The notes: a model not told the origin generated them from the sequence alone. 61,191 bases of DNA from an uncultured archaeon (GCA_964493715.1 CAZBPC010000006.1:1-61191), one strand, 5' to 3'. Counted from the first letter of the stretch, positions 57 to 9,934 are shown. Made by a program: numbers and translations.

Positions 57-272
57 TTAATTATTTTGATCAAAATGATCAAGTATAGCAATTCCAAAAA
101 ATAGCATTAAAACACCATAAATAAACATAAAATTTTCAGGTTGAGATTTAAAGTTCTTTTTCTTCTTTATTACCTCATTGATCGCAACAATGACCTCAAA
201 TAGAAATCTAGCTCGATTTTCAATTGACCATCCATATTCATCCGTTCTAATATTAGAACATCTTATAAAAGA
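57..272 (-). pseudogene. start-less open frame, possible cassette remnant (hydrophobic C-terminus)
   Basis: Hand translation gives 71 open codons between TAA 273-275 and TAA 57-59: ...DEYGWSIENRARFLFEVIVAINEV...FMFIYGVLMLFFGIAILDHFDQNN*. It has no 5' start and lies at the end of the cassette array. Confidence 0.25.
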
Positions 273-361
273 TTAATTTTACATTACATGATTGTTCTAT
301 CAAAAATAATGATGCTTGGACACACCAAATTCCTTTCTTTCAATAATTATAAGGTTATCTT

Positions 362-793
362 CTAATTGTCTAGTATAAGTTTTTTGTTTAAACTAGTCGC
401 AAATTTCTGAAAATATGCGATTATTTCTTCACATTTCAGAAGTGAAAAATGCCGGGTACTTAATTCAAAACCTGAAATGAATTTAAAATCCTTATTATAA
501 TTCTGATAAAATGAGTAAAACTGAACTTTATATTTCTTTCTGGAAAGTTTTTGAAATATCTTATATTTTTTAGTTTTCTCGATTATTTTAATAACATCAA
601 AATCTTTCCACCATATAAAAAAAGAAGGTTTTTCCAAGATTTTTACTGTTATATAATTTTTTGTAATTCTTATTGCAGATTCTTTGAATACTGGAAAATA
701 ATCTCCAAATTTACTATAATAATATAGTTTTTTATTTTTAATTCTTAAAGAAAATAAAATGACTCCTAAAAAAAATAATATCGAAAAAAACAT
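362..793 (-). CDS. TM + PH-like (bPH) small protein, candidate immunity protein 4 (possibly 5'-truncated)
   Basis: N-terminal hydrophobic helix followed by a beta-rich IRITKNYITVK...FIWWKDFDVIKI pattern typical of bacterial PH-like domains; abuts cassette 793-1062. Confidence 0.5.
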   Translation of the reverse strand: MFFSILFFLGVILFSLRIKNKKLYYYSKFGDYFPVFKESAIRITKNYITVKILEKPSFFIWWKDFDVIKIIEKTKKYKIFQKLSRKKYKVQFYSFYQNYNKDFKFISGFELSTRHFSLLKCEEIIAYFQKFATSLNKKLILDN

Positions 794-1062
794 TATAATA
801 GGGAATCTTGCGGTAACAATAATAATGCTACACTAGCTACAGCAATCGTTAATCCTAATAGAATTATCGCCATAATTGCCCAAACTAGAATATACACTGA
901 TGCTCTAATTAACAACCACATGAGATCTCCGAGTGCTGTGAGAAGTGTCATGAATATCGAATCAGCGAATCCAATCAAATAACCCATTTTTTCCGCAGCG
1001 ATCATCGCCATGTTATAAATTACAACAAGGTGTAAAAATGGGCATAGCCAGGTATAATTCAT
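793..1062 (-). pseudogene. truncated cassette containing the conserved hinge motif
   Basis: DSIFMTLLTALGDLMWLLIRASVYILVWAI aligns with QSIGMTILSWLAHLAWLLVRAAILIFAWI of 5983-7971; the frame stops about 30 aa later. Confidence 0.6.
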
Positions 1063-1204
1063 TTAATAATGAGGACCAATAAAAAGTCTTCACCGATTCC
1101 AACCTTTAAATTATTATTTAGTCTTTTTTCCTATAATACATAGAATAATATTGGAACTTGTAGTTAAGACTTTCACATTTAATAAAAAAATAGAAAAGAT
1201 TAAC

Positions 1205-1300
1205 AAAATGAGATTTATTTTTTTATAATTTTAACGTGATTTTGTTCCAGTATTTTAAGTAATGGTTTGTAGTCAAAAACATTATACAATACGTGATAAC
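1205..1300. repeat. direct repeat copy A (3' end and trailer of immunity-like paralog)
   Basis: aaaatgagatttatttttttat.attttaacgtgattttgttcca..attttaagtaa.ggtttgta is near-identical to 3049-3144 (offset 1844); weaker similarity continues into 1147-1204 vs 2996-3048. Confidence 0.85.
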
Positions 1301-1808
1301 TTCTCTGAAGACGTTGGGGGATTTTCACTCCCTTCTCTTTAGAAATTCGAAATCTCCATTCAATAGGACTTGTAGCATCAAATTTAGGGAAGATTCTTAT
1401 TTTAGCAACCTCATCTTTAAGAAATAGCACTTTTTTGATCTCGATTTTATCAATCTTTGAATACTCAAAGGCATAATATTCACTATATTTCTGATTTTCA
1501 CTTTTATCGACAATTTTTTTATTTGTTGCGAAAAATGATCTCTGATCATGAATTATACCTAACCATATAATTATTGAAGATATGACACCAAAAAGTGGAA
1601 AAATTATAATGAAAAATGCGATAAACAGAGTTATAGCAGAAAGAAAAATAAAATCAAAAGAAGAGGATGATCTAAAGATTATATTAGCCATTATGATCCC
1701 AATTATGGAAATTGGTAATGAAATTAAGATTATAATCTCTTGGAATTTTGGGCTAATTTTCGACTGCCAATGAATTTCCTCGTCTTTTTCTATCATATCC
1801 ATTAACAT
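1215..1808 (-). CDS. 2-TM + PH-like membrane protein, candidate immunity protein 3
   Basis: Paralog of 3059-3667 (shared FAT..I.DK.E, F.YS.I.KIEIK, YHVLYNV..YKPLLKILEQNHVKIIKK); GGAGG RBS just upstream. Confidence 0.8.
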   Translation of the reverse strand: MLMDMIEKDEEIHWQSKISPKFQEIIILISLPISIIGIIMANIIFRSSSSFDFIFLSAITLFIAFFIIIFPLFGVISSIIIWLGIIHDQRSFFATNKKIVDKSENQKYSEYYAFEYSKIDKIEIKKVLFLKDEVAKIRIFPKFDATSPIEWRFRISKEKGVKIPQRLQRSYHVLYNVFDYKPLLKILEQNHVKIIKK

Positions 1809-1836
1809 ATTTCTCCCTCCTTTATAAATTTATACT

Positions 1837-2730
1837 TTACACAAATGCTTGTAATAAGAATAAAAATCCAAATCCCATAAACCAAATCATAGTGCATAGG
1901 GTGATTATTTGAGTTATATCTTCCGTTCCAGCGCTAAGACTATCAAAAATCGTTTCAGCTGCAAACCAACATGCAAATATTAACGCAATACCTTGAAATA
2001 ACATTTCAGCAAATTCTCTCATCATTCTATCAAAAGTAGAACCTTCAAACAGAGTATTAATAGAACCAATAATCAATTTTACTCCTGAACCGATAAGAAT
2101 GACTATTATTTTCAAAAACATAACATAAGAGCTCTCAGATGGCTTGAAGTCATGTCCGATTTTACAAAAAAATGCAAATAATAGTACTGCTGTCCATAAA
2201 CCAACAACCCATCCTGCGGAGTAATATGGTGAAAGAGGATCCTCGCTGTTTAGACAAAGTGTAAAAATTGTAGTTGCTACTCCAATAAATAGTGCATATG
2301 TAAGTAATGCAGCTATAGCTTCCAAATTTGGATCGACGAGTATCGGAACAGCTCCCAAAGCTGTAATTATAATCGTAGCAAGTAATATAGAATCACCTAT
2401 ACCATTGAAAAAACGAGTTAATTTTTCATCAACAGATAAATCCTCAACATAGAGTTGATATTGTTCAGTCACGATTATGTCAGTAGAAGTGTTAACCTCG
2501 AAATAAAAATAATACACCCCGATTTTATCAAATGAGAGTTCAAGGAAATATTCTTTTCCATCGGTAAAATCTTCATCTTCCAAATCGGCTTCGGTCATAT
2601 TGTAAACTCTTTCATATATCCAATTATCATTATTAACATGCAACTTGGGGAATCCTGTTTGCGGTGCTCTATTAAGAGCATCCGTATAAATAATCTCAAA
2701 TCTAAAAATGAGATAATCGTTAATCCGCAC
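1837..2730 (-). CDS. orphan C-terminal cassette 3: beta-sandwich domain + ~5-6 TM helices (5'-truncated)
   Basis: IFRFEIIYTDALNRAPQTGFPKLHV...DFTDGKEYF...IGVYYFYF...QYQL.VEDLS is clearly homologous to the middle of 3681-4994. Homology starts abruptly at ~2710 and the GTG start has no obvious RBS. Confidence 0.75.
   Translation of the reverse strand: MRINDYLIFRFEIIYTDALNRAPQTGFPKLHVNNDNWIYERVYNMTEADLEDEDFTDGKEYFLELSFDKIGVYYFYFEVNTSTDIIVTEQYQLYVEDLSVDEKLTRFFNGIGDSILLATIIITALGAVPILVDPNLEAIAALLTYALFIGVATTIFTLCLNSEDPLSPYYSAGWVVGLWTAVLLFAFFCKIGHDFKPSESSYVMFLKIIVILIGSGVKLIIGSINTLFEGSTFDRMMREFAEMLFQGIALIFACWFAAETIFDSLSAGTEDITQIITLCTMIWFMGFGFLFLLQAFV
2639..2670. repeat. 32-bp direct repeat copy A (RAPQTGFPKLH coding segment)
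   Basis: 28/32 identical to 2935-2966 by hand alignment. Confidence 0.8.
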
Positions 2731-2934
2731 ACTACTAAAGCAAGGAATAATGCTGGATATTCAAAAAGACCTCGTGATGTATCGTACTCAGATATCGCTT
2801 CAATATCATCTCTTATTGTAAAACATGTAAATATGATCCATTAAATGAATCACAATTTCCATAGCGCTAACCACACCTCCAAAATTTAATAATGCTCCCA
2901 TAATCATATTTTTAAAACAACCTATTGCTAGACC

Positions 2935-2966
2935 TGCAACTTGGGGAATCTTGATTTCGGAGCTCT
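2935..2966. repeat. 32-bp direct repeat copy B, micro-remnant of another cassette
   Basis: Minus strand reads RAPKSRFPKLQ, versus RAPQTGFPKLH at 2639-2670; lies in the intergenic gap. Confidence 0.75.
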
Positions 2967-3048
2967 CCCAAAAATATCAAAAGTATGTTTCCTTTAATAC
3001 TTGGAACTTATTACTAAGGTTTAAACAATTACTAAAAAAAATTAAAAA

Positions 3049-3144
3049 AAAATGAGATTTATTTTTTTATGATTTTAACGTGATTTTGTTCCAAAATTTT
3101 AAGTAAGGGTTTGTAATTAGATACATTGTATAGTACATGATAAT
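3049..3144. repeat. direct repeat copy B
   Basis: Near-identical to 1205-1300. Confidence 0.85.
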
Positions 3145-3667
3145 CTCCCTCAAAAAGTTGGGGGACCTTCACACCATGTTCTTTGAAAAATTTAAAACTC
3201 CATTCAATAGTGTTTGAAAGATTAAATTCAGGGAAGATTCTGATCAAAACACCTCTTTTTTTAAAAAAAAATCTTGGCTTGATCTCAATTTTATTGATAT
3301 TTGAATATTCAAATATGAAATATTCAATATATTCCTTTTTTTCTCGTTTATCAATAATATTATCATGTGTTGCAAAATATGTAATTTTACCACCCAAACT
3401 CTTTCCAGCTAGCCAGTCAATTAATGCTAAGGTAAATCCAGCCAATGGAAGCCCTAGCAATAATATAGCACTCATTCCGAATAACCCCATTAAAAGAAAT
3501 CCAAATAATCCAGTGGGATAATCTGAGAATTTACGGAAAAAATCTTGGAATAAGATTCCGATTACAAGAACCATTGATGAAATAAGGAATAAGATTAATC
3601 GGAAATATAATTTAACATTTAATTGCCAGAGCATTTCCTTATTCTTTTCTACCATATCTATTGACAT
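3059..3667 (-). CDS. 2-TM + PH-like membrane protein, candidate immunity protein 2
   Basis: Paralog of 1215-1808 with diverged TM helices and an identical C-terminal end; GGAGTG RBS; starts 13 nt after the cassette 2 stop. Confidence 0.8.
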   Translation of the reverse strand: MSIDMVEKNKEMLWQLNVKLYFRLILFLISSMVLVIGILFQDFFRKFSDYPTGLFGFLLMGLFGMSAILLLGLPLAGFTLALIDWLAGKSLGGKITYFATHDNIIDKREKKEYIEYFIFEYSNINKIEIKPRFFFKKRGVLIRIFPEFNLSNTIEWSFKFFKEHGVKVPQLFEGDYHVLYNVSNYKPLLKILEQNHVKIIKK

Positions 3668-3680
3668 TTTTCACACTCCA

Positions 3681-5051
3681 TTAAAATTGAAAGAACTTCA
3701 TAATACTCAAGATTAGGAATCCAAAACCAAAACACATAAGTGTCATTATAGAAGCACGAGCTATCATTTTAGTTGATTCTTCTGTTATTATATTAAATTT
3801 TCCAAAAATTGTTGAAGCTGAGAAGAGACTAGCAATAACCAACAATAAAAATTGAGATGACGAAGTAATCAATGAAATCAAGTCTAATTCGCTGTTATCA
3901 GGATCAAATAATGCTTTGATAGATCCAAAATTTGCTTTAATCACTGCACTAATTATTAACGTTATAAATTTTATGATAGTTAGAGTTGTTGTTTTAGATG
4001 GATCAAAGGACAATGGAAATTTGCAAAATACCCCAAGCAACCCTGCTGAAATTAGAACACCTAAAGACCACCCTAGGGCGCGATATGGAGTATTTTCTGA
4101 CTTACTATTCACAAAGATTCTTAAATTTATCCAAAGTGTTAGCAGTAGTATTCCATACATTATATTTCCAGCAATCATCTCCGCTGTTGGATGTGGGATT
4201 AGAGGAACCAACCCCAAAATTGATATCATAGCTGTGGTGAATGCCATAGAATCATACATACCTTCCTTCAAACTAGTCATTTTTTCCTCAAATGATAAAT
4301 CCTCAATACTAAGTTGATATTGATCAGTTTCGACTGTATCAGTAGGAGTTTCGACATCAAAATAAAAATAATAATCTCCAATATGATCATATGAAATTTC
4401 ATAGAAATATTCTTTCCCATCAGTAAAATCATCATCTTCCCCATGAGTTCCTATCAGGATGTAAACCCTTTCGGATTCTACCCAACCATCATGAATAACA
4501 TGTAGCTTAGGGTATCCTGTTTCTGGTGGTCTATTATCGATATCCGTGTAAGTAATAGTAAATCTAAAGATCGTTTGCGTGTCCCCACCATTAGGATTTA
4601 CATTTATATTACTGAGCGTGCTTTTACCATCGGAAGAAGTGTATACATCTGAAGGACTGCTCATATCGGGATATCCATAATCAAATTCTCGAGACAACCC
4701 TATTCCTATAATTTCTTCTGTTCTAGATGTTAAAGTATTATCCATTGAATCATCCTTGATCACTAAGGGAAGATCGACATCGAAGAAATCAACATGTTCT
4801 AATGTAACGGTCGTTTCCGTTTTTATTGGTAATCCTTTTAAACTGTATTCAAAAGACATTACATCGTAATTTACTTCTCCACCAAGCAATAATATGAAAG
4901 GAACCATGACAAGGTACATGACATACTCCAAAAGCATGTTGAAGATCTTAATTGCCAATACAATATATGCGAATACTAGGATCGCAGCACGCACTAAAAG
5001 CCATGCTAAGTGTGCTAGCCACGAGAGTAATTGCCATAATTTTTGTACTTC
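3681..5051 (-). CDS. orphan C-terminal cassette 2: hinge + beta-sandwich + ~5-6 TM helices (no proper start)
   Basis: The frame is open from 5051 (EVQKLWQLLSWLAHLAWLLVRAAILVFAYI); the ORF track starts at internal GTG 4994. The ATG matching the trunk Met (5035-5037) is out of frame by a 1-nt insertion. Confidence 0.75.
   Translation of the reverse strand, partial: EVQKLWQLLSWLAHLAWLLVRAAILVFAYIVLAIKIFNMLLEYVMYLVMVPFILLLGGEVNYDVMSFEYSLKGLPIKTETTVTLEHVDFFDVDLPLVIKDDSMDNTLTSRTEEIIGIGLSREFDYGYPDMSSPSDVYTSSDGKSTLSNINVNPNGGDTQTIFRFTITYTDIDNRPPETGYPKLHVIHDGWVESERVYILIGTHGEDDDFTDGKEYFYEISYDHIGDYYFYFDVETPTDTVETDQYQLSIEDLSFEEKMTSLKEGMYDSMAFTTAMISILGLVPLIPHPTAEMIAGNIMYGILLLTLWINLRIFVNSKSENTPYRALGWSLGVLISAGLLGVFCKFPLSFDPSKTTTLTIIKFITLIISAVIKANFGSIKALFDPDNSELDLISLITSSSQFLLLVIASLFSASTIFGKFNIITEESTKMIARASIMTLMCFGFGFLILSIMKFFQF
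4981..5037. repeat. hinge repeat copy B
   Basis: 4981-5029 matches 7112-7160 at 47/49 nt, and extends to 5037/7167 with one extra base. Confidence 0.95.
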
Positions 5052-5477
5052 CTAAGTTAATATATACATTATTTTTATAAATATAATAATCTTTAATTTA
5101 GAAATTGTACATCTTTGAATCTCTATCATTGAACGCTTTTTTACTGTTAAGGAATAAGTTATGATAGTGTTAATGCTAATTAAAATTACTTGATCATCTC
5201 CAAGAACAATCGTGAATAAATAAAGAAAAACTAATAATACAATGAGCAAAATCGCAATTCTTATCACTAAATTTCGTGTATCAGTTAAATTCACCAATTT
5301 AACTTGATCACACAATACTTTTTCACTATTTTGAAGATATTTTCCTACAAAATCTTCAGAATTAAATTTATCTTCGACCTGTGTGACAGATATTGATGTT
5401 AACTCTTCCTTTTCTGATATTCCAATATCATTTAAATTCTTGAATTTAATTTTTTGCTTTTTATTTATTTGTTTGAA
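5052..5477 (-). pseudogene. start-less remnant of another TM/PH-like (immunity-type) gene
   Basis: The frame is open 5477-5055: ...EDFVGKYLQNSEKVLCDQVK...IAILLIVLLVFLYLFTIV.... EKVL-C resembles the EEIHW/KEMLW motif that precedes TM1 in the neighbouring paralogs. Confidence 0.4.
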
Positions 5478-5930
5478 TCACTCAATCTGATTTGAGATTT
5501 CTTTCATTATTTCTTTGTAATTTTCAATTAAAAACGTAGGAAAGATTATCTCTTCAGAAACTAATTGGATGATGAATTGTGGATATATCTTGCCCTTCAA
5601 GCGTACCTCCTTTATTTGACTAAAGTGAATGAATCTCGTGGTGACATAATTAATCACGCCATTATTCCTCACTTGAACACCATTCTCGTATACAATAACA
5701 TAGGAAACTAGTACTTTCATTCCAATCCAGAAGAAGATGAATCCTGAAAATAGTAAAAACTCCCAAAAACCAAAGGTGATATCCATTCTTAAGATAAGAT
5801 AAATTTTTATATATAACCATGCTAACATTAAAACTACTCCACACATAAAAAAAGTCATAGAAATATAATCCCGTTGTGTTTTACTTTTTAAAATTTTTTT
5901 TCCAGGTTGATTATTTTTCATATTATTCAT
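5478..5930 (-). CDS. 2-TM + bPH-domain protein, candidate immunity protein 1
   Basis: Two TM helices then YVIVYENGVQVR...FIHFSQIKEVRL, a typical bPH pattern; directly downstream of cassette 1. Confidence 0.75.
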   Translation of the reverse strand: MNNMKNNQPGKKILKSKTQRDYISMTFFMCGVVLMLAWLYIKIYLILRMDITFGFWEFLLFSGFIFFWIGMKVLVSYVIVYENGVQVRNNGVINYVTTRFIHFSQIKEVRLKGKIYPQFIIQLVSEEIIFPTFLIENYKEIMKEISNQIE

Positions 5931-5982
5931 TTGCTTTGATACTATTTAAATTTAGAAAATAATTTTATAAAAAAAAAATTAA

Positions 5983-7971
5983 TTAATTTGATTCTTCGAT
6001 TAAAATTGTATATCCGATTGTTATTAATGATATTCCTATACCCATACTTATAAGCCCAAAGACAAAAGCAATTATCGATTTTTTATCACCATTAAATCCC
6101 CAAAGACTCCCACCTATAACATTACCATAATTAGTTGCTTTACCCTTCTTATGACCTCCAAATAAAACTATGCTAGTTGCCAAGAGAATCATTGAAATAA
6201 CTGCAAAAACACCACTTGCTATTGCTACAATGACTTTAGCGGGAAGATTATTAGCTAAATCGATCCAGTTTAGTTGTTCAAACCAATCTACACCTAACAT
6301 CGATCCTACTCCAATAATATCCAATAATTCAACTAACATAATCACAAATCTTCCATGGTCATAATTGCCTCTCCCAAAAAAAAGCTTGATAATATTTGCC
6401 ATAAATGTATAAGTTGTATCAATATAACCACTCATTATAAAAGCAAATAATCCTGCGATAAAAATCCCATATCCTAAACCCATAAATTTTACAGCTCTTG
6501 TTGTTGGATCATCATTACTAATAATTACTACTGCAAGCAGAATGGTGGCAATGAAGGCTAAAATTGATAAAATCGTTAGTATAGTCTTATACGTCACTTC
6601 AGATTTACACATTTCTAATATGCCTGATATAATACACATAAAACTACAAGCAAGCCCTATACCAGATCCTACAGCTATTAGATAGTCTAATACTAAATTC
6701 CATATAAATAAATCATCAGAAGTACTTGAAGCTTTTACTTTACTTTCACTATATAGTGAATTTTCTGGGTTTGTATTATCGGTGAAAATCTGTTCTAATG
6801 GATTTTCTAGATGGTTTGGAACTCCAATATTATTTGTAAGAAGTGTACATGATAATTCAAAACTGATTTCATTTGAAGTAAAATAGAAGTTCAAAATTGG
6901 AATATCAATTTTAAAGAATTCGATATGACACATATCAATAGTATAACCGATATCAAAGTTAAGATCACCTGAAACTGTAATATTGTTTATCGACAGTGAA
7001 TAATCAATACTAGCAAAAATATCGAAGAGTAAAACCAAACCCATCATGGTTATGATGATGAGATTGACAAATAGAAATAGTAATGCAAATACGATCCAAG
7101 CGAAAATTAAAATCGCAGCACGTACTAACAGCCATGCTAAGTGTGCTAGCCACGAGAGTATTGTCATTCCTATTGATTGAGCATTTTGATTGTTTTGGTT
7201 GGTGATATCTGCAATGCTACTGGCTATTGTGATTATTAGATAAGCTATTCCGAAGGTAATGATGTACAATATTACAACGAGTACCCCTAACCACCACGCT
7301 AAGGGGTCAAAAGGTCTTGGAGCTGCTCCTAACTCCGCACTAACATGAGGACTATCTAATGGGATAAACAACATCGCTGCAGAGGGTAGATTCATCATCG
7401 TGGCTGATATGCCGTCATCTTTTGTCGAAATATAGGAATATAACACGGCAGTTTCGTTGGTTTCCGCGTCAATCAGGCAATTGAGTAATAAATCCAGAAT
7501 TTCCATTGCTTCTTCAGCAGAGAGATCAAATCTTACAATGTGAAAATCGCAATCACCGCAAGCATCTTCGAGTTTATTTCCATCTCTATCAACGGAATAA
7601 AACTCATATTTACCTTCCTCATCGCTATAAAGTGGAGTTTCATCCAATCGGTCATGTTCAATGTAACCATGTAGCTCAGTTTTGGTGAATAAGGAGGTGG
7701 GAATCACGATCGCGTTTGGTCCTTCTACGAAAGGCGTGCCTTCAAATATTGTATCTGTATTCAAGTATAATTGAAATACCGTCGTCCTTTCTTTTTCTTG
7801 ATAATGTCCGGTGAAACCATTGGAGCTAGCATCAAAAATTGCAATCGTATTGGCTCTTTCGATGGCTAATGTCTTGAGTTTCACTTGCACGACATCATTG
7901 TTAGCGTGAGCTACTTGCAACGTCTGCTCATGGCCCACCGAACCTATCGTGTAGTCTAATGTGCCTCCCAC
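5983..7971 (-). CDS. trunk fragment + hinge + multi-TM C-terminal domain (cassette 1); 5'-truncated large protein
   Basis: Acidic soluble N-region (~220 aa), hydrophobic hinge, then ~6 Gly-rich TM helices. The coding frame continues upstream past an in-frame TAG (8008-8010) to ~8100 (FNDKYYLDIDDDFTEQDETIPVTIWG). Confidence 0.8.
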   Translation of the reverse strand: MGGTLDYTIGSVGHEQTLQVAHANNDVVQVKLKTLAIERANTIAIFDASSNGFTGHYQEKERTTVFQLYLNTDTIFEGTPFVEGPNAIVIPTSLFTKTELHGYIEHDRLDETPLYSDEEGKYEFYSVDRDGNKLEDACGDCDFHIVRFDLSAEEAMEILDLLLNCLIDAETNETAVLYSYISTKDDGISATMMNLPSAAMLFIPLDSPHVSAELGAAPRPFDPLAWWLGVLVVILYIITFGIAYLIITIASSIADITNQNNQNAQSIGMTILSWLAHLAWLLVRAAILIFAWIVFALLFLFVNLIIITMMGLVLLFDIFASIDYSLSINNITVSGDLNFDIGYTIDMCHIEFFKIDIPILNFYFTSNEISFELSCTLLTNNIGVPNHLENPLEQIFTDNTNPENSLYSESKVKASSTSDDLFIWNLVLDYLIAVGSGIGLACSFMCIISGILEMCKSEVTYKTILTILSILAFIATILLAVVIISNDDPTTRAVKFMGLGYGIFIAGLFAFIMSGYIDTTYTFMANIIKLFFGRGNYDHGRFVIMLVELLDIIGVGSMLGVDWFEQLNWIDLANNLPAKVIVAIASGVFAVISMILLATSIVLFGGHKKGKATNYGNVIGGSLWGFNGDKKSIIAFVFGLISMGIGISLITIGYTILIEESN
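7112..7167. repeat. hinge repeat copy A
   Basis: See 4981-5037; encodes MTILSWLAHLAWLLVRAAI. Confidence 0.95.
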
Positions 7972-8301
7972 GTATTCATAATCACATGGATCTGCTGGTA
8001 ATATACACTAACCCCATATCGTGACAGGGATCGTTTCATCTTGCTCAGTAAAATCATCATCGATATCAAGATAATACTTGTCATTAAAAAGGATAGTTAG
8101 TAGTATGTTTTCGCTAAATTTCAGTATTAAATTTTTTAGTTTATAATTAATCAAATTATTTTAAAAGTAAAATATCATAGATGCCAAAATTATCTCAGAA
8201 TAATATTTTTTACATTACCAATATTTATTATCTTAAACAATTAAAAACCTCTTAAATTGATAATAGTTACTATTTACGAAAAGTGAGGTGAAAAAGAGAA
8301 A

Positions 8302-8724
8302 ATGTCAGAGATAGTTAAAGATTTTACTATCCAAAGTTATTTGGAGTACATACAAAATAAGAAACTAATGGGGACAAAATGTAAGGATTGCGGCGAATTA
8401 TACGTTCCAGTAAGGCAATTATGCACTAAATGTAATTCTCCAAATATGGAATGGGTTGAAATGAGTGGGAATGGCAAACTTGCAGCCTTTACATGTATCA
8501 CAGTAGGTACACCTTATTTTATTGAAAAAGGATATGATAGGAACAGACCATATTGCTTTTCTGTAATTAAACTTGAAGAAGGTCCCATGGTATCAGCTCA
8601 ATTAGTTGGAGTTGATGAAACAAAGCCAGATACGATTAAAATTGAAATGCCTCTTAAGGTTAAGTTCCTAGAAACTGAAATTAAAGGCGAAACTAAGGTA
8701 GATCTTGGTTTTGAACCAAAATAA
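8302..8724 (+). CDS. DUF35 Zn-ribbon/OB-fold protein (acyl-CoA/thiolase associated)
   Basis: CKDC...P.RQLCTKC, W.E.SG.G...FT, PY....L.EGP; GAGGTG RBS. Confidence 0.9.
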   Translation: MSEIVKDFTIQSYLEYIQNKKLMGTKCKDCGELYVPVRQLCTKCNSPNMEWVEMSGNGKLAAFTCITVGTPYFIEKGYDRNRPYCFSVIKLEEGPMVSAQLVGVDETKPDTIKIEMPLKVKFLETEIKGETKVDLGFEPK

Positions 8725-8785
8725 TAAATTTATTAATTTTCTTTTTATTATTATAATTAAGCCATAGCCATATAGGTGGATTTTA

Positions 8786-9934
8786 ATCAAAAAAGTCTCC
8801 AAAATCATTTTAATAACACTTCTTACTTTATCTATTACTTTACTTTCGATTTATTCCATTATAATTGTACTCAACCCCTCCCAAATTCGAAATATAGATG
8901 TCCCTTTAGAGTTTAATGGAGATAATGCATATTTAATGGTTGAAGATCAAATCAATTTAAATTTAACTCATTATAGAATTCCGGGTACTAAGGGTCGTGA
9001 AGATTGTGCTGATTATTTTGTGAATAAGTTCAAGGAAATTAATGTTAACTTTACTTATATCCTGCAAAATTTTACCGTTTTATCTGTAGATTGTCAAAAT
9101 GTCGTTTTTAAATTAAATGAAGACTTGGATAATATCGTGATTTTAGCAGCCCACTATGACTCTAGGGCAAAAGCAACTAAAGACCCAACCATCTCTTTAA
9201 GATCCCATCCAGTATCAGGTGCTAATGATGGAGCAAGTGGATGTGCAGCACTTATAGAATTAGCGCACGTTCTTTACAATCAAAGATTCGATTTAAACTG
9301 TCAAATTTGGTTTGTATTTTTTGATGCAGAAGATCAAGGCTATGATTATGCTGCTGGAATCCTGGGATGGGATTGGTGTGAAGGTTCTACGCGTTTTGCT
9401 AATGATTTAGAAGATTTTCACGATCCCAGTGAAACTTTCGATTGCATGGTTTTATTAGACATGGTTGGAGGAAATAATCTACAATTTATCAACGAACAAT
9501 ACTCCACTTTCTCACTTTTACAAGAAATATTTGAAATCGGGAGGCAATTAGGTTTTGACCAAGCTTATCCAACAAATCCAGTTTCAGCCACCATCACTGA
9601 TGATCATGTATCCTTTATGGAAAAAGGAATTCCATCAGCAGATCTAATCATCAACTTCTGGAATAATCCCTCTTGGAGTTATCATCATACTACTCATGAT
9701 GATTTATCTCATATTTCAAATCAGAGTCTAGAGATAACGGGTAAAACAATTGAACAATTTATTTATAATAATTATTTAGATATTCCTGAAAACAATTATA
9801 AGGGAAATTTTCCTTGGAATAAGGATATAAATTTTTTAGATACTGATATTTTAACGATTTTAATAATTACGATATCAATTATCGCAATAACTGCCATAAG
9901 CTATAGCATTTATAAGAAGTTTATTAAAAATTAA
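8786..9934 (+). CDS. M28 family peptidase / glutaminyl-cyclase-like, membrane anchored
   Basis: AHYDSR, GANDGASG, FDAED, LDMVG, DDH, HHTTHD motifs and a C-terminal TM. The frame extends upstream of ATG 8936 through a signal-like segment to ATC 8786, behind an AGGTGG RBS. Confidence 0.85.
   Translation: MKKVSKIILITLLTLSITLLSIYSIIIVLNPSQIRNIDVPLEFNGDNAYLMVEDQINLNLTHYRIPGTKGREDCADYFVNKFKEINVNFTYILQNFTVLSVDCQNVVFKLNEDLDNIVILAAHYDSRAKATKDPTISLRSHPVSGANDGASGCAALIELAHVLYNQRFDLNCQIWFVFFDAEDQGYDYAAGILGWDWCEGSTRFANDLEDFHDPSETFDCMVLLDMVGGNNLQFINEQYSTFSLLQEIFEIGRQLGFDQAYPTNPVSATITDDHVSFMEKGIPSADLIINFWNNPSWSYHHTTHDDLSHISNQSLEITGKTIEQFIYNNYLDIPENNYKGNFPWNKDINFLDTDILTILIITISIIAITAISYSIYKKFIKN

Follow-up and report, generated by a model that had tools for sequence, protein, structure and literature searches.

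A probable decayed 3′ end and orphan array of a giant surface-protein gene, from an undescribed polymorphic family of Asgard archaea

In the CdiA-CT/CdiI systems, a very large surface protein has a body that ends at a short motif and continues into a hypervariable C-terminus, which is followed by a small cognate gene and by arrays of orphan modules. For IdsD and IdsE of Proteus mirabilis, which are the products of adjacent genes, allele-specific pairing is thought to lie in hydrophobic or membrane regions of the two proteins. Here we analyze a locus at positions 57 to 8,100 of a 61,191-nucleotide stretch of DNA from an uncultured archaeon (GCA_964493715.1, CAZBPC010000006.1:1-61191; hereafter, the window). 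In its own genome (G000), the window covers the initial 61 kb of contig C6, and the locus therefore lies at a contig end. The region is probably the decayed 3′ end, with an orphan array, of a giant surface-protein gene, and it belongs to a polymorphic, undescribed family of the Promethearchaeia (Asgard archaea) in which modules of a variable C-terminal tip and a partner gene appear to have been swapped. Among archaea, polymorphic toxin systems are, in the account that accompanies the description of VARTIG, predicted but not experimentally characterized (PMC8416519). The same account presents VARTIG, from the Thermococcales, as a large secreted Ig-domain protein with a recombination-driven hypervariable C-terminal region and variable downstream genes, for which its authors weigh roles in conflict, immunity, and the distinction of self from non-self (PMC8416519). 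According to the passages on its distribution, VARTIG is confined to the Thermococcales, and Ig-centered searches gave no close counterpart elsewhere (PMC8416519).

Calling of open reading frames (ORFs) gave eight on the minus strand, with four large hydrophobic ones (A1–A4) interleaved with four small ones (B1–B4; Table 1), which is the layout that a first-pass annotation, made from the sequence alone, had proposed. The same annotation had noticed a motif shared by three of the large cassettes, and we find it in A1 (SIGMTILSWLAHLAWLLVRA) and A4 (SIFMTLLTALGDLMWLLIRA) and, in a form that lacks the beginning, in A2 (LSWLAHLAWLLVRA). This motif, which we call the hinge, has the consensus W-L-[LI]-[IV]-R-[AVS] and lies in a membrane segment at the end of a conserved region (the trunk); what follows the hinge is called the tip, and the small gene downstream of a tip its partner. 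At the DNA level, the A1 and A2 copies of the hinge are 85% identical over 85 nucleotides, with unalignable flanks, and contig C65 of G000 ends in a fourth copy, which is 94% identical to that of A1 over 82 nucleotides. The hinge is not a chance match, because every one of the 28 database homologues of A1 contains the motif [LWI][LTI][LIV][IV][RG][AVS] exactly once.

Those of the 28 relatives whose source is named come from metagenome-assembled genomes (MAGs) of Promethearchaeota or Thorarchaeota, and a search for related loci with a 12-sequence alignment returned uncultured MAGs only. When 398 genomes of the phylum were searched with the trunk, 31 were positive; in the window's own family, the figure was 26 of 132. 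Open frames of at least 2,000 residues were present at 21 of the 57 trunk-matched places, the two longest comprising 5,927 and 6,008 residues, and intact family members span 2,300–6,000 residues. These giant proteins combine an N-terminal signal peptide or anchor with PKD, LamG, TSP3, or DUF2341 domains, and we therefore regard the trunk as the part of a giant adhesin-like ectodomain that lies closest to the membrane. Examples with an export signal or anchor are encoded on L085 (3,195 residues), G209:C51 (3,941 residues), and G177:C23 (6,008 residues), where L-numbers denote sequences, of which L082–L085 are metagenome contigs. The first-pass annotation had proposed just such a search of Asgard genomes, and large secreted multidomain genes with a conserved trunk and variable C-termini were indeed found; the window copy, the 5′ end of which is deleted, does not encode such a protein.

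The conserved trunk occupies ~250 residues directly before the hinge-bearing membrane segment. Mean pairwise identity along A1, calculated over 29 proteins, is 0.52–0.68 at residues 31–210, 0.49 at the hinge (residues 271–300), and 0.11–0.27 from residue 301 to the end. In an AlphaFold2 model of A1 (69-sequence alignment; mean predicted local distance difference test score (pLDDT) of 79), an alpha/beta trunk, with a domain at residues 15–202 of pLDDT about 90, is followed by a long helical membrane segment that contains the hinge. Neither trunk nor hinge had been recognized at first pass as any described family, and our searches of the trunk against Pfam, NCBIfam, and PDB sequences were likewise empty, while the ESM Atlas yielded no match that could be used. 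Pfam scans of the window proteins, nine long homologues, and three giants detected no TPS/FHA/VENN, RHS, LXG, PT-TG, PT-HINT, or similar domain; with no TPS, FHA, VENN, RHS, or other pre-toxin domain, the family falls outside every named family tested. A full-text literature search found no description of it, with an earlier mention in the 2019 mBio survey of archaeal polymorphic toxins, or in the supplementary tables of the VARTIG paper, being possible.

The drop in identity at the hinge can be followed within pairs of database homologues (P-numbers). The trunks of P0001 and P0002 are 96% identical over 250 residues, and their tips 24%; those of P0001 and P0018 are 100% identical, with no hit between the tips; and P0005 and P0006 share 96% of the trunk and 25% of the tip over 48 residues. 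The first-pass annotation had named invariant C-termini as an observation that would speak against a polymorphic system, and what we see instead is near-identical trunks bearing unrelated tips. The same boundary is found between copies on a single contig. On G209:C51, the 3,941-residue gene is followed, in order, by a gene for a 193-residue two-helix membrane protein, a 771-residue copy (trunk, hinge, and new tip), a gene for a 154-residue soluble beta-helix-like protein, and a 724-residue copy. In eight 90-nucleotide intervals (~700 nucleotides) before the hinge, DNA identity among the three copies is 71–98% (mostly at least 80%), and right after the hinge it is 32–56%. Orphan modules of this kind, in which a partial trunk with its hinge is joined to a tip and a partner gene, are located downstream of intact genes, and downstream orphan tip/partner modules were found on G209:C51, on L083, and in the window. 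The family thus has the sharp boundary and hypervariable C-terminus of polymorphic toxin systems. At the family level, the polymorphic architecture proposed at first pass (a boundary, a tip-linked gene, and orphans) holds up; the part that does not is the reading of 5983–7971 as a full-length gene.

Two further observations concern contig C65. In the source sample (run X1), there is a second copy of the trunk end (window 7210–7286 and 7336), with a depth of ~9 versus 13–15 and a 75-nucleotide skip, and P0018 joins a trunk end identical to that of A1 to the C65 tip. On account of these, C65 is probably another orphan module, the trunk part of which was collapsed in assembly.

The fate of the large gene in the window was apparent from a comparison with metagenome contigs, four of which contain the window trunk at 92–97% identity. 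One of them, L085, comes from a closely related strain (92–98% DNA identity to the window) and has the same upstream neighbor as the window (8612–8077), followed by an intact 3,195-residue gene, the product of which has a signal anchor and PKD, LamG, and TSP3 domains. The trunk DNA (window 8092–7100, L085 8899–9891) is 91.7% identical. The L085 tip has an A2-like start (80%) and an A3-like continuation (97.7% DNA identity to window A3, at the 3′ end of the gene); downstream are a gene identical to B3 and then the genes of contig C134 (95%), which abuts the start of the window via a 55-nucleotide overlap. Absent from the window are L085 positions 538–8898, that is, 8.36 kb comprising the promoter, the start codon, and ~2,440 codons. 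With this 5′ deletion and a TAG in the remainder, the large gene is dead in G000. Reading the TAG as pyrrolysine was considered and rejected, since TGG occupies this position in the intact allele and the deletion severs the frame as well. The independent metagenome contig L082 has the identical junction and TAG, with a P0002 tip after the hinge, and Logan contigs from four runs cover 7693–8217 with 0 differences. No nucleotide match to the deleted 8.36 kb was found anywhere in G000. Consequently, 5983–7971, which the first-pass annotation took for the trunk gene, is the 3′ remnant of a gene for ~3,200 residues, with its first ~2,440 codons deleted and a nonsense codon upstream of the GTG, and the window holds orphans only.

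The sequence acquired by the window between the hinge and A3 comprises the A1 tip, B1, what remains of a beta-helix-like gene, and A2 with B2. In the window, the A3 tip and B3, which are the working end in L085, would therefore lie behind inserted A1 tip–B1 and A2–B2 modules. L083 has an intact gene of at least 2,322 residues with an A2-type tip (91% amino acid identity to A2), with a B2-type partner and additional orphans downstream, and L084 is collinear with window 7696–4566 (97.5%). Closely related strains therefore carry different tips on the same trunk. Misassembly had been put forward at first pass as an outcome that would undo the array; the assembly of the window is confirmed by independent assemblies. 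Moreover, the co-occurring contigs L082 and L084 share the truncated allele and differ in its tip, so that recombination continued after the deletion. Logan contigs from four runs tile the region, with breaks at repeats, including one at hinge copy 1 (7131–7159), and with three rearrangement joints, namely window 7129 to 4999 and 2667 to 4530 (both X6) and 5168 to 1214 (X10). The joints are suggestive of hinge and tip recombination but, as they come from k=31 contigs, are taken as hints only.

Downstream of its truncated module, L082 contains a second stretch of giant-gene coding sequence (3319–4068, ending …RHFNDKYYLDIDD) that runs off the end of the contig, and this strain may hold a further, longer copy of the giant gene.

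The ratio of non-synonymous to synonymous divergence (dN/dS) is 0.09–0.13 in the trunk, 0.40–0.56 in tips compared between alleles, and 0.33–0.46 in partners; the values for the tips indicate that constraint on them is present. The displaced A3 fragment has diverged from L085 with a dN/dS of 0.70 (dS 0.053, dN 0.037), whereas B3 (window 1215–1808, L085 11190–11783) has 0 changes in 197 codons, though it is adjacent to A3. These numbers bear on the possibility that, in the window, the entire array, partners included, consists of the neutral remains of a dead locus and has no function at present. The 5′ deletion and TAG, the truncation of A3, A4, and B4, the frameshifted stretch at 2731–3058, the fragment of an unrelated gene at 169–277, and the lack of any intact giant gene in G000 are all as expected of debris. 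However, B1, B2, and B3 are complete, B3 is unchanged beside an A3 with a dS of 0.053, and the locus kept recombining after the deletion, as the tips of L082 and L084 attest. In addition, strong ribosome-binding sites precede the ATG of B2 (GGAG) and of B3 (AGGAGGG), whereas the A genes have GTG starts only, with no ribosome-binding site; at first pass, clear sites had been noted for two partner genes and a lack of convincing starts for the downstream cassettes. We therefore consider it rather unlikely that the array is debris throughout.

We obtained 41 complete tips of at least 250 residues, of which 38 have at least four predicted membrane helices; most tips are bundles of 4–8. The A1 tip has 25 relatives among 1.84 billion representative proteins, and all of these are C-terminal parts of this same family. 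The tips had been described at first pass as glycine-rich, which is correct for A1 (11.4% glycine, against a genome baseline of 5.8%) but not for A2 (5.6%) or A3 (7.9%). No Pfam, NCBIfam, PDB, or fold match accounts for the window tips; Pfam and NCBIfam scans of all eight window proteins gave none above threshold, and PDB sequence searches with an alignment profile and with a HExxH tip returned nothing relevant. Rare enzyme-like tips are present in other members. In the distant member L078 1082–2359 (G168:C186), the tip comprises a single membrane helix and a class-2 lipase or alpha/beta hydrolase domain (PF01674, 24.3 bits versus a cutoff of 20.3), and the tips of P0019 and P0027 have TSP3-like repeats and a HELAHC…H motif with metzincin-like spacing, as judged by eye and with no profile hit. 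Three fold searches with residues 415–662 of the A1 model listed seven-transmembrane (7TM) receptors among their top rows (class B and adhesion G-protein-coupled receptors (GPCRs) and viral US28), all with chance-level scores. As predicted integral bundles at the C-terminus of a Sec-type protein, the tips should insert in the membrane of the producer itself. Going by domain types only, the beta domain and the parts that follow it (an Ig-like domain, TSP3 repeats, and enzyme-like tips) would face outward, in which case the hinge segment would form a membrane hairpin.

In 31 of the 41 modules, a same-strand ORF of at least 80 residues lies downstream, at a distance of −30 to +260 nucleotides, and 26 of these 31 ORFs have at least one membrane helix. 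Across 465 pairs of modules, both tip and partner were similar in 14, the tip only in 53, the partner only in 1, and neither in 397, giving an odds ratio of 105, with pairs from related loci not being independent. Partner similarity shows no such association with that of the trunk (odds ratio 3.5, p 0.14). Partner type thus tracks tip type, and not trunk type. Within G000, A1-type tips occur with B1-type genes (in the window and on C150), and A2/A3-type tips with B2/B3-type genes (in the window and on C84). A paralogue 54% identical to B1 adjoins the A1-type tip fragment on C150, and B1 has two database hits only. The B2 family comprises 11 database proteins, in which an EKDEEILWQS N-terminus and a C-terminal domain are conserved and the membrane region is variable. 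There is no detectable homology between the B1 and B2 families (hhalign probability of 0.3%). In related genera, giant genes with long tips (~750 residues) are followed by genes for secreted, 420–520-residue, Zn-dependent phospholipase C-like proteins; L066 1848–3110 scores 31.4 bits (cutoff 26.8), and L047 2176–3582 and L045 3541–5100 are below the cutoff.

The pairing also bears on another explanation, namely that the tip is an ordinary variable membrane anchor or receptor, comparable to the 7TM part of adhesion receptors, the diversity of which reflects weak constraint and recombination, with downstream genes that are unrelated neighbors or assembly helpers. Some downstream genes are clearly unrelated, as this would predict. 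However, weak constraint does not account for a boundary of 96% versus 24% within one protein pair, a tip dN/dS of 0.4–0.56 between alleles means that constraint is present, and both the orphan modules with retained trunk homology and the match of partner type to tip type would be left unexplained. We consider an ordinary anchor very unlikely.

Our preferred reading of the region, as the decayed end of a giant gene with swapped modules, would involve homologous recombination in the trunk or hinge that installs a new tip and partner and pushes the old pair downstream. On this basis, the system appears to be of the polymorphic-toxin or self-recognition kind, with its large gene inactive in G000. 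Less firmly, tip and partner may form a cognate membrane pair for cell-to-cell conflict, either as a membrane-damaging effector and its immunity protein or as an identity pair, and the intact B1–B3 may be kept as protection or identity genes though the large gene is dead. In its broadest form, which we put forward tentatively, and as somewhat short of probable, Promethearchaeia would engage in contact-dependent competition or kin recognition by means of giant adhesins, exchanging a membrane module and its cognate partner at the hinge, reading specificity within the membrane, and keeping partners as protection after loss of the giant gene.

Several results weigh against these proposals. No intact giant gene with this hinge exists in G000, so that function there would be limited to the partner genes or to putative internal starts. 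The two sides of the 7129–4999 joint have exactly 31 letters in common, which is the word size of the k=31 assembler; the joint may be an assembly chimera, and we therefore do not count it as proof. A close downstream ORF is lacking in 10 of the 41 modules, and some downstream genes encode unrelated products (an MFS transporter, MarR-like proteins, and phospholipase-C-like enzymes). Pairing is not strict at short range, given that identity between the A2 tip and its counterpart in L083 is 91%, against only 60% for their partners. Searches of the partners against immunity families, and of the window tips against known toxin families in Pfam and NCBIfam, gave no match. Finally, tips embedded in the membrane argue against delivery of the classical contact-dependent inhibition (CDI) or Rhs type. 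Both the idea of the tips as pore-forming toxins and that of the partners as immunity proteins are unproven. So is a pleckstrin-homology (PH) fold of the partners: bPH_3 was matched by 3 of 13 B2-family members at sub-threshold level (best E 0.0023; B3 E 0.036), the ESM-Atlas neighbor PH_40 (score 0.91) is a lead only, and an AlphaFold2 model of B2 from 13 sequences (pLDDT 52) was too poor for a fold search. A complex prediction of A1 residues 265–662 with B1 scored 0.00 and is uninformative either way.

Since membrane-embedded tips argue against classical toxin delivery, a non-lethal identity system was kept as the main rival. It would entail self-recognition or kin discrimination with no killing, in which the adhesin contacts neighbors and the variable tip and partner are an allele-specific identity pair, comparable to IdsD/IdsE or to TraA of Myxococcus. 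In both proteins, what varies is embedded in the membrane (helices of the tip and, for the B2 family, the membrane region), the tips are predicted to stay in the membrane of the producer, no toxin family was detected in the window tips, and partner type follows tip type, all of which would suit identity proteins. In contrast, the enzyme-like tips (lipase and HExxH) and the adjacent phospholipase-C-like genes suggest damage rather than labeling, and the retention of partners alongside a large gene that is dead is a typical trait of immunity genes, while also being compatible with identity genes. Overall, we judge recognition of this purely non-lethal kind unlikely. Variable surface or adhesion cassettes, the alternative offered by the first-pass annotation, fit poorly, because the variability is in a membrane-embedded tail and not in the exposed ectodomain.

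The remaining features of the window are collected in Table 1. The G+C content of the array region is ~25–40%. The remnant at 5052–5315 is 94% identical in DNA to contig C14 over 82 nucleotides and resembles both L004 5350–5814 and the 154-residue gene after the first orphan of G209:C51. A4, which had been annotated at first pass as a tip cassette, turned out to be a fragment in which the trunk end and its hinge belong to another subtype (76% identity to P0026 residues 379–444) and a short hydrophobic tail follows. The C14 paralogue of B4 has a first membrane helix that B4 itself lacks. Just downstream of B4, at window 169–277, part of an Old-Yellow-Enzyme-type flavin oxidoreductase gene forms further debris at the same spot; the intact gene, on contig C122 (L006 871–1908), matches it at 86% DNA identity. 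Directly downstream of the array, both strains have a conserved 942–947-residue protein (L005 (C134) 749–3577; L085 13479–16322), preceded by a 97-residue gene; the C-terminus of the larger protein has a …D-x-K-type motif that is nuclease-like by eye only. A scan for promoter and terminator consensus sequences gave 59 matches, not above the 51 ± 7.5 of shuffled sequences, using a bacterial consensus on an archaeal host.

Table 1. Features of the array region, with positions counted from the first nucleotide of the window
Feature	Position	Strand	Remarks
In-frame TAG	8008..8010	-	TGG (Trp) in the intact gene of L085 and in P0003
Deletion junction	8083..8089	-	TTTTAAT microhomology; upstream intergenic DNA fused to codon ~2,440
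A1 ORF	5983-7971	-	Annotated start GTG 7971
Trunk remnant	7102..8082	-	Membrane-proximal ectodomain of giant protein
Hinge copy 1 (…LSWLAHLAWLLVRAAIL…)	7084..7167	-	Putative recombination boundary within membrane helix
A1 tip	5983..7083	-	Beta domain (residues 322-383), then seven helices (418-661); glycine-rich
B1	5478..5930	-	150-residue partner; two membrane helices and small beta/alpha domain
Remnant of soluble beta-helix-like partner gene	5052..5315	-	
A2	3681..5051	-	Orphan module from hinge on; beta domain, beta-rich middle domain, ~7 helices
Hinge copy 2	4953-5037	-	In A2
B2	3059..3667	-	202-residue partner; GGAG before ATG
Frameshifted debris of older tips	2731..3058	-	P0004-type tip and beta-rich middle-domain fragment at 2932-2966
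A3	1837..2730	-	Displaced 3′ part of tip, without hinge
B3	1215..1808	-	197-residue partner; AGGAGGG before ATG
A4	793..1062	-	Trunk end and hinge of second, P0026-like subtype; no real tip
B4	362..793	-	N-terminally shortened partner; start overlaps A4 stop (TAATG)

If our reading is right, the closest prokaryotic relatives of eukaryotes would possess a system of cell–cell conflict or recognition built from giant adhesins with membrane-embedded, swappable specificity modules, which would bear on how syntrophic, contact-dependent Asgard cells choose or fight their neighbors. A profile of the conserved trunk and hinge also allows such loci, now annotated as "hypothetical protein," to be found and annotated in Asgard MAGs.

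Compared with known systems, the likeness to adhesion GPCRs is superficial: a giant adhesion ectodomain, a conserved membrane-proximal domain, and ~7 helices are common to both, with chance-level fold scores. B1–B4 are laid out like the membrane-anchored bPH proteins YdbS and YdbT, with a pair of membrane helices after a short N-terminus and then a small beta-rich domain that ends in a helix, but the B families gave only sub-threshold bPH_3 hits, and homology between the B1 and B2 families was not detectable. As far as the architectures can be compared by description, the variable part of VARTIG is a C-terminal Ig domain, whereas that of the Asgard family is a membrane module that follows a membrane hinge. 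The Rhs/YD-repeat and MafB systems likewise displace old tips downstream together with their immunity genes and show a drop in identity at a conserved motif; YD repeats, an Rhs core, and MafB domains were, however, not detected in the Asgard family, the trunk of which has no Pfam, NCBIfam, or PDB-sequence match. With IdsD/IdsE, the Asgard tip and partner may, by analogy, share the idea of pairing through membrane regions, but IdsD/IdsE depend on type VI secretion and have neither a giant adhesin body nor orphan arrays. In comparison with CdiA/CdiI, the Asgard family has no TPS domain, FHA repeats, VENN motif, or CdiB detectable by Pfam, it belongs to a single-membrane archaeon, its boundary motif lies inside a membrane helix, and most of its tips are 4–8-helix membrane bundles that are expected to remain in the membrane of the producer. 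The layout, however, resembles that of CdiA/CdiI, including the orphans that keep some upstream homology for recombination.

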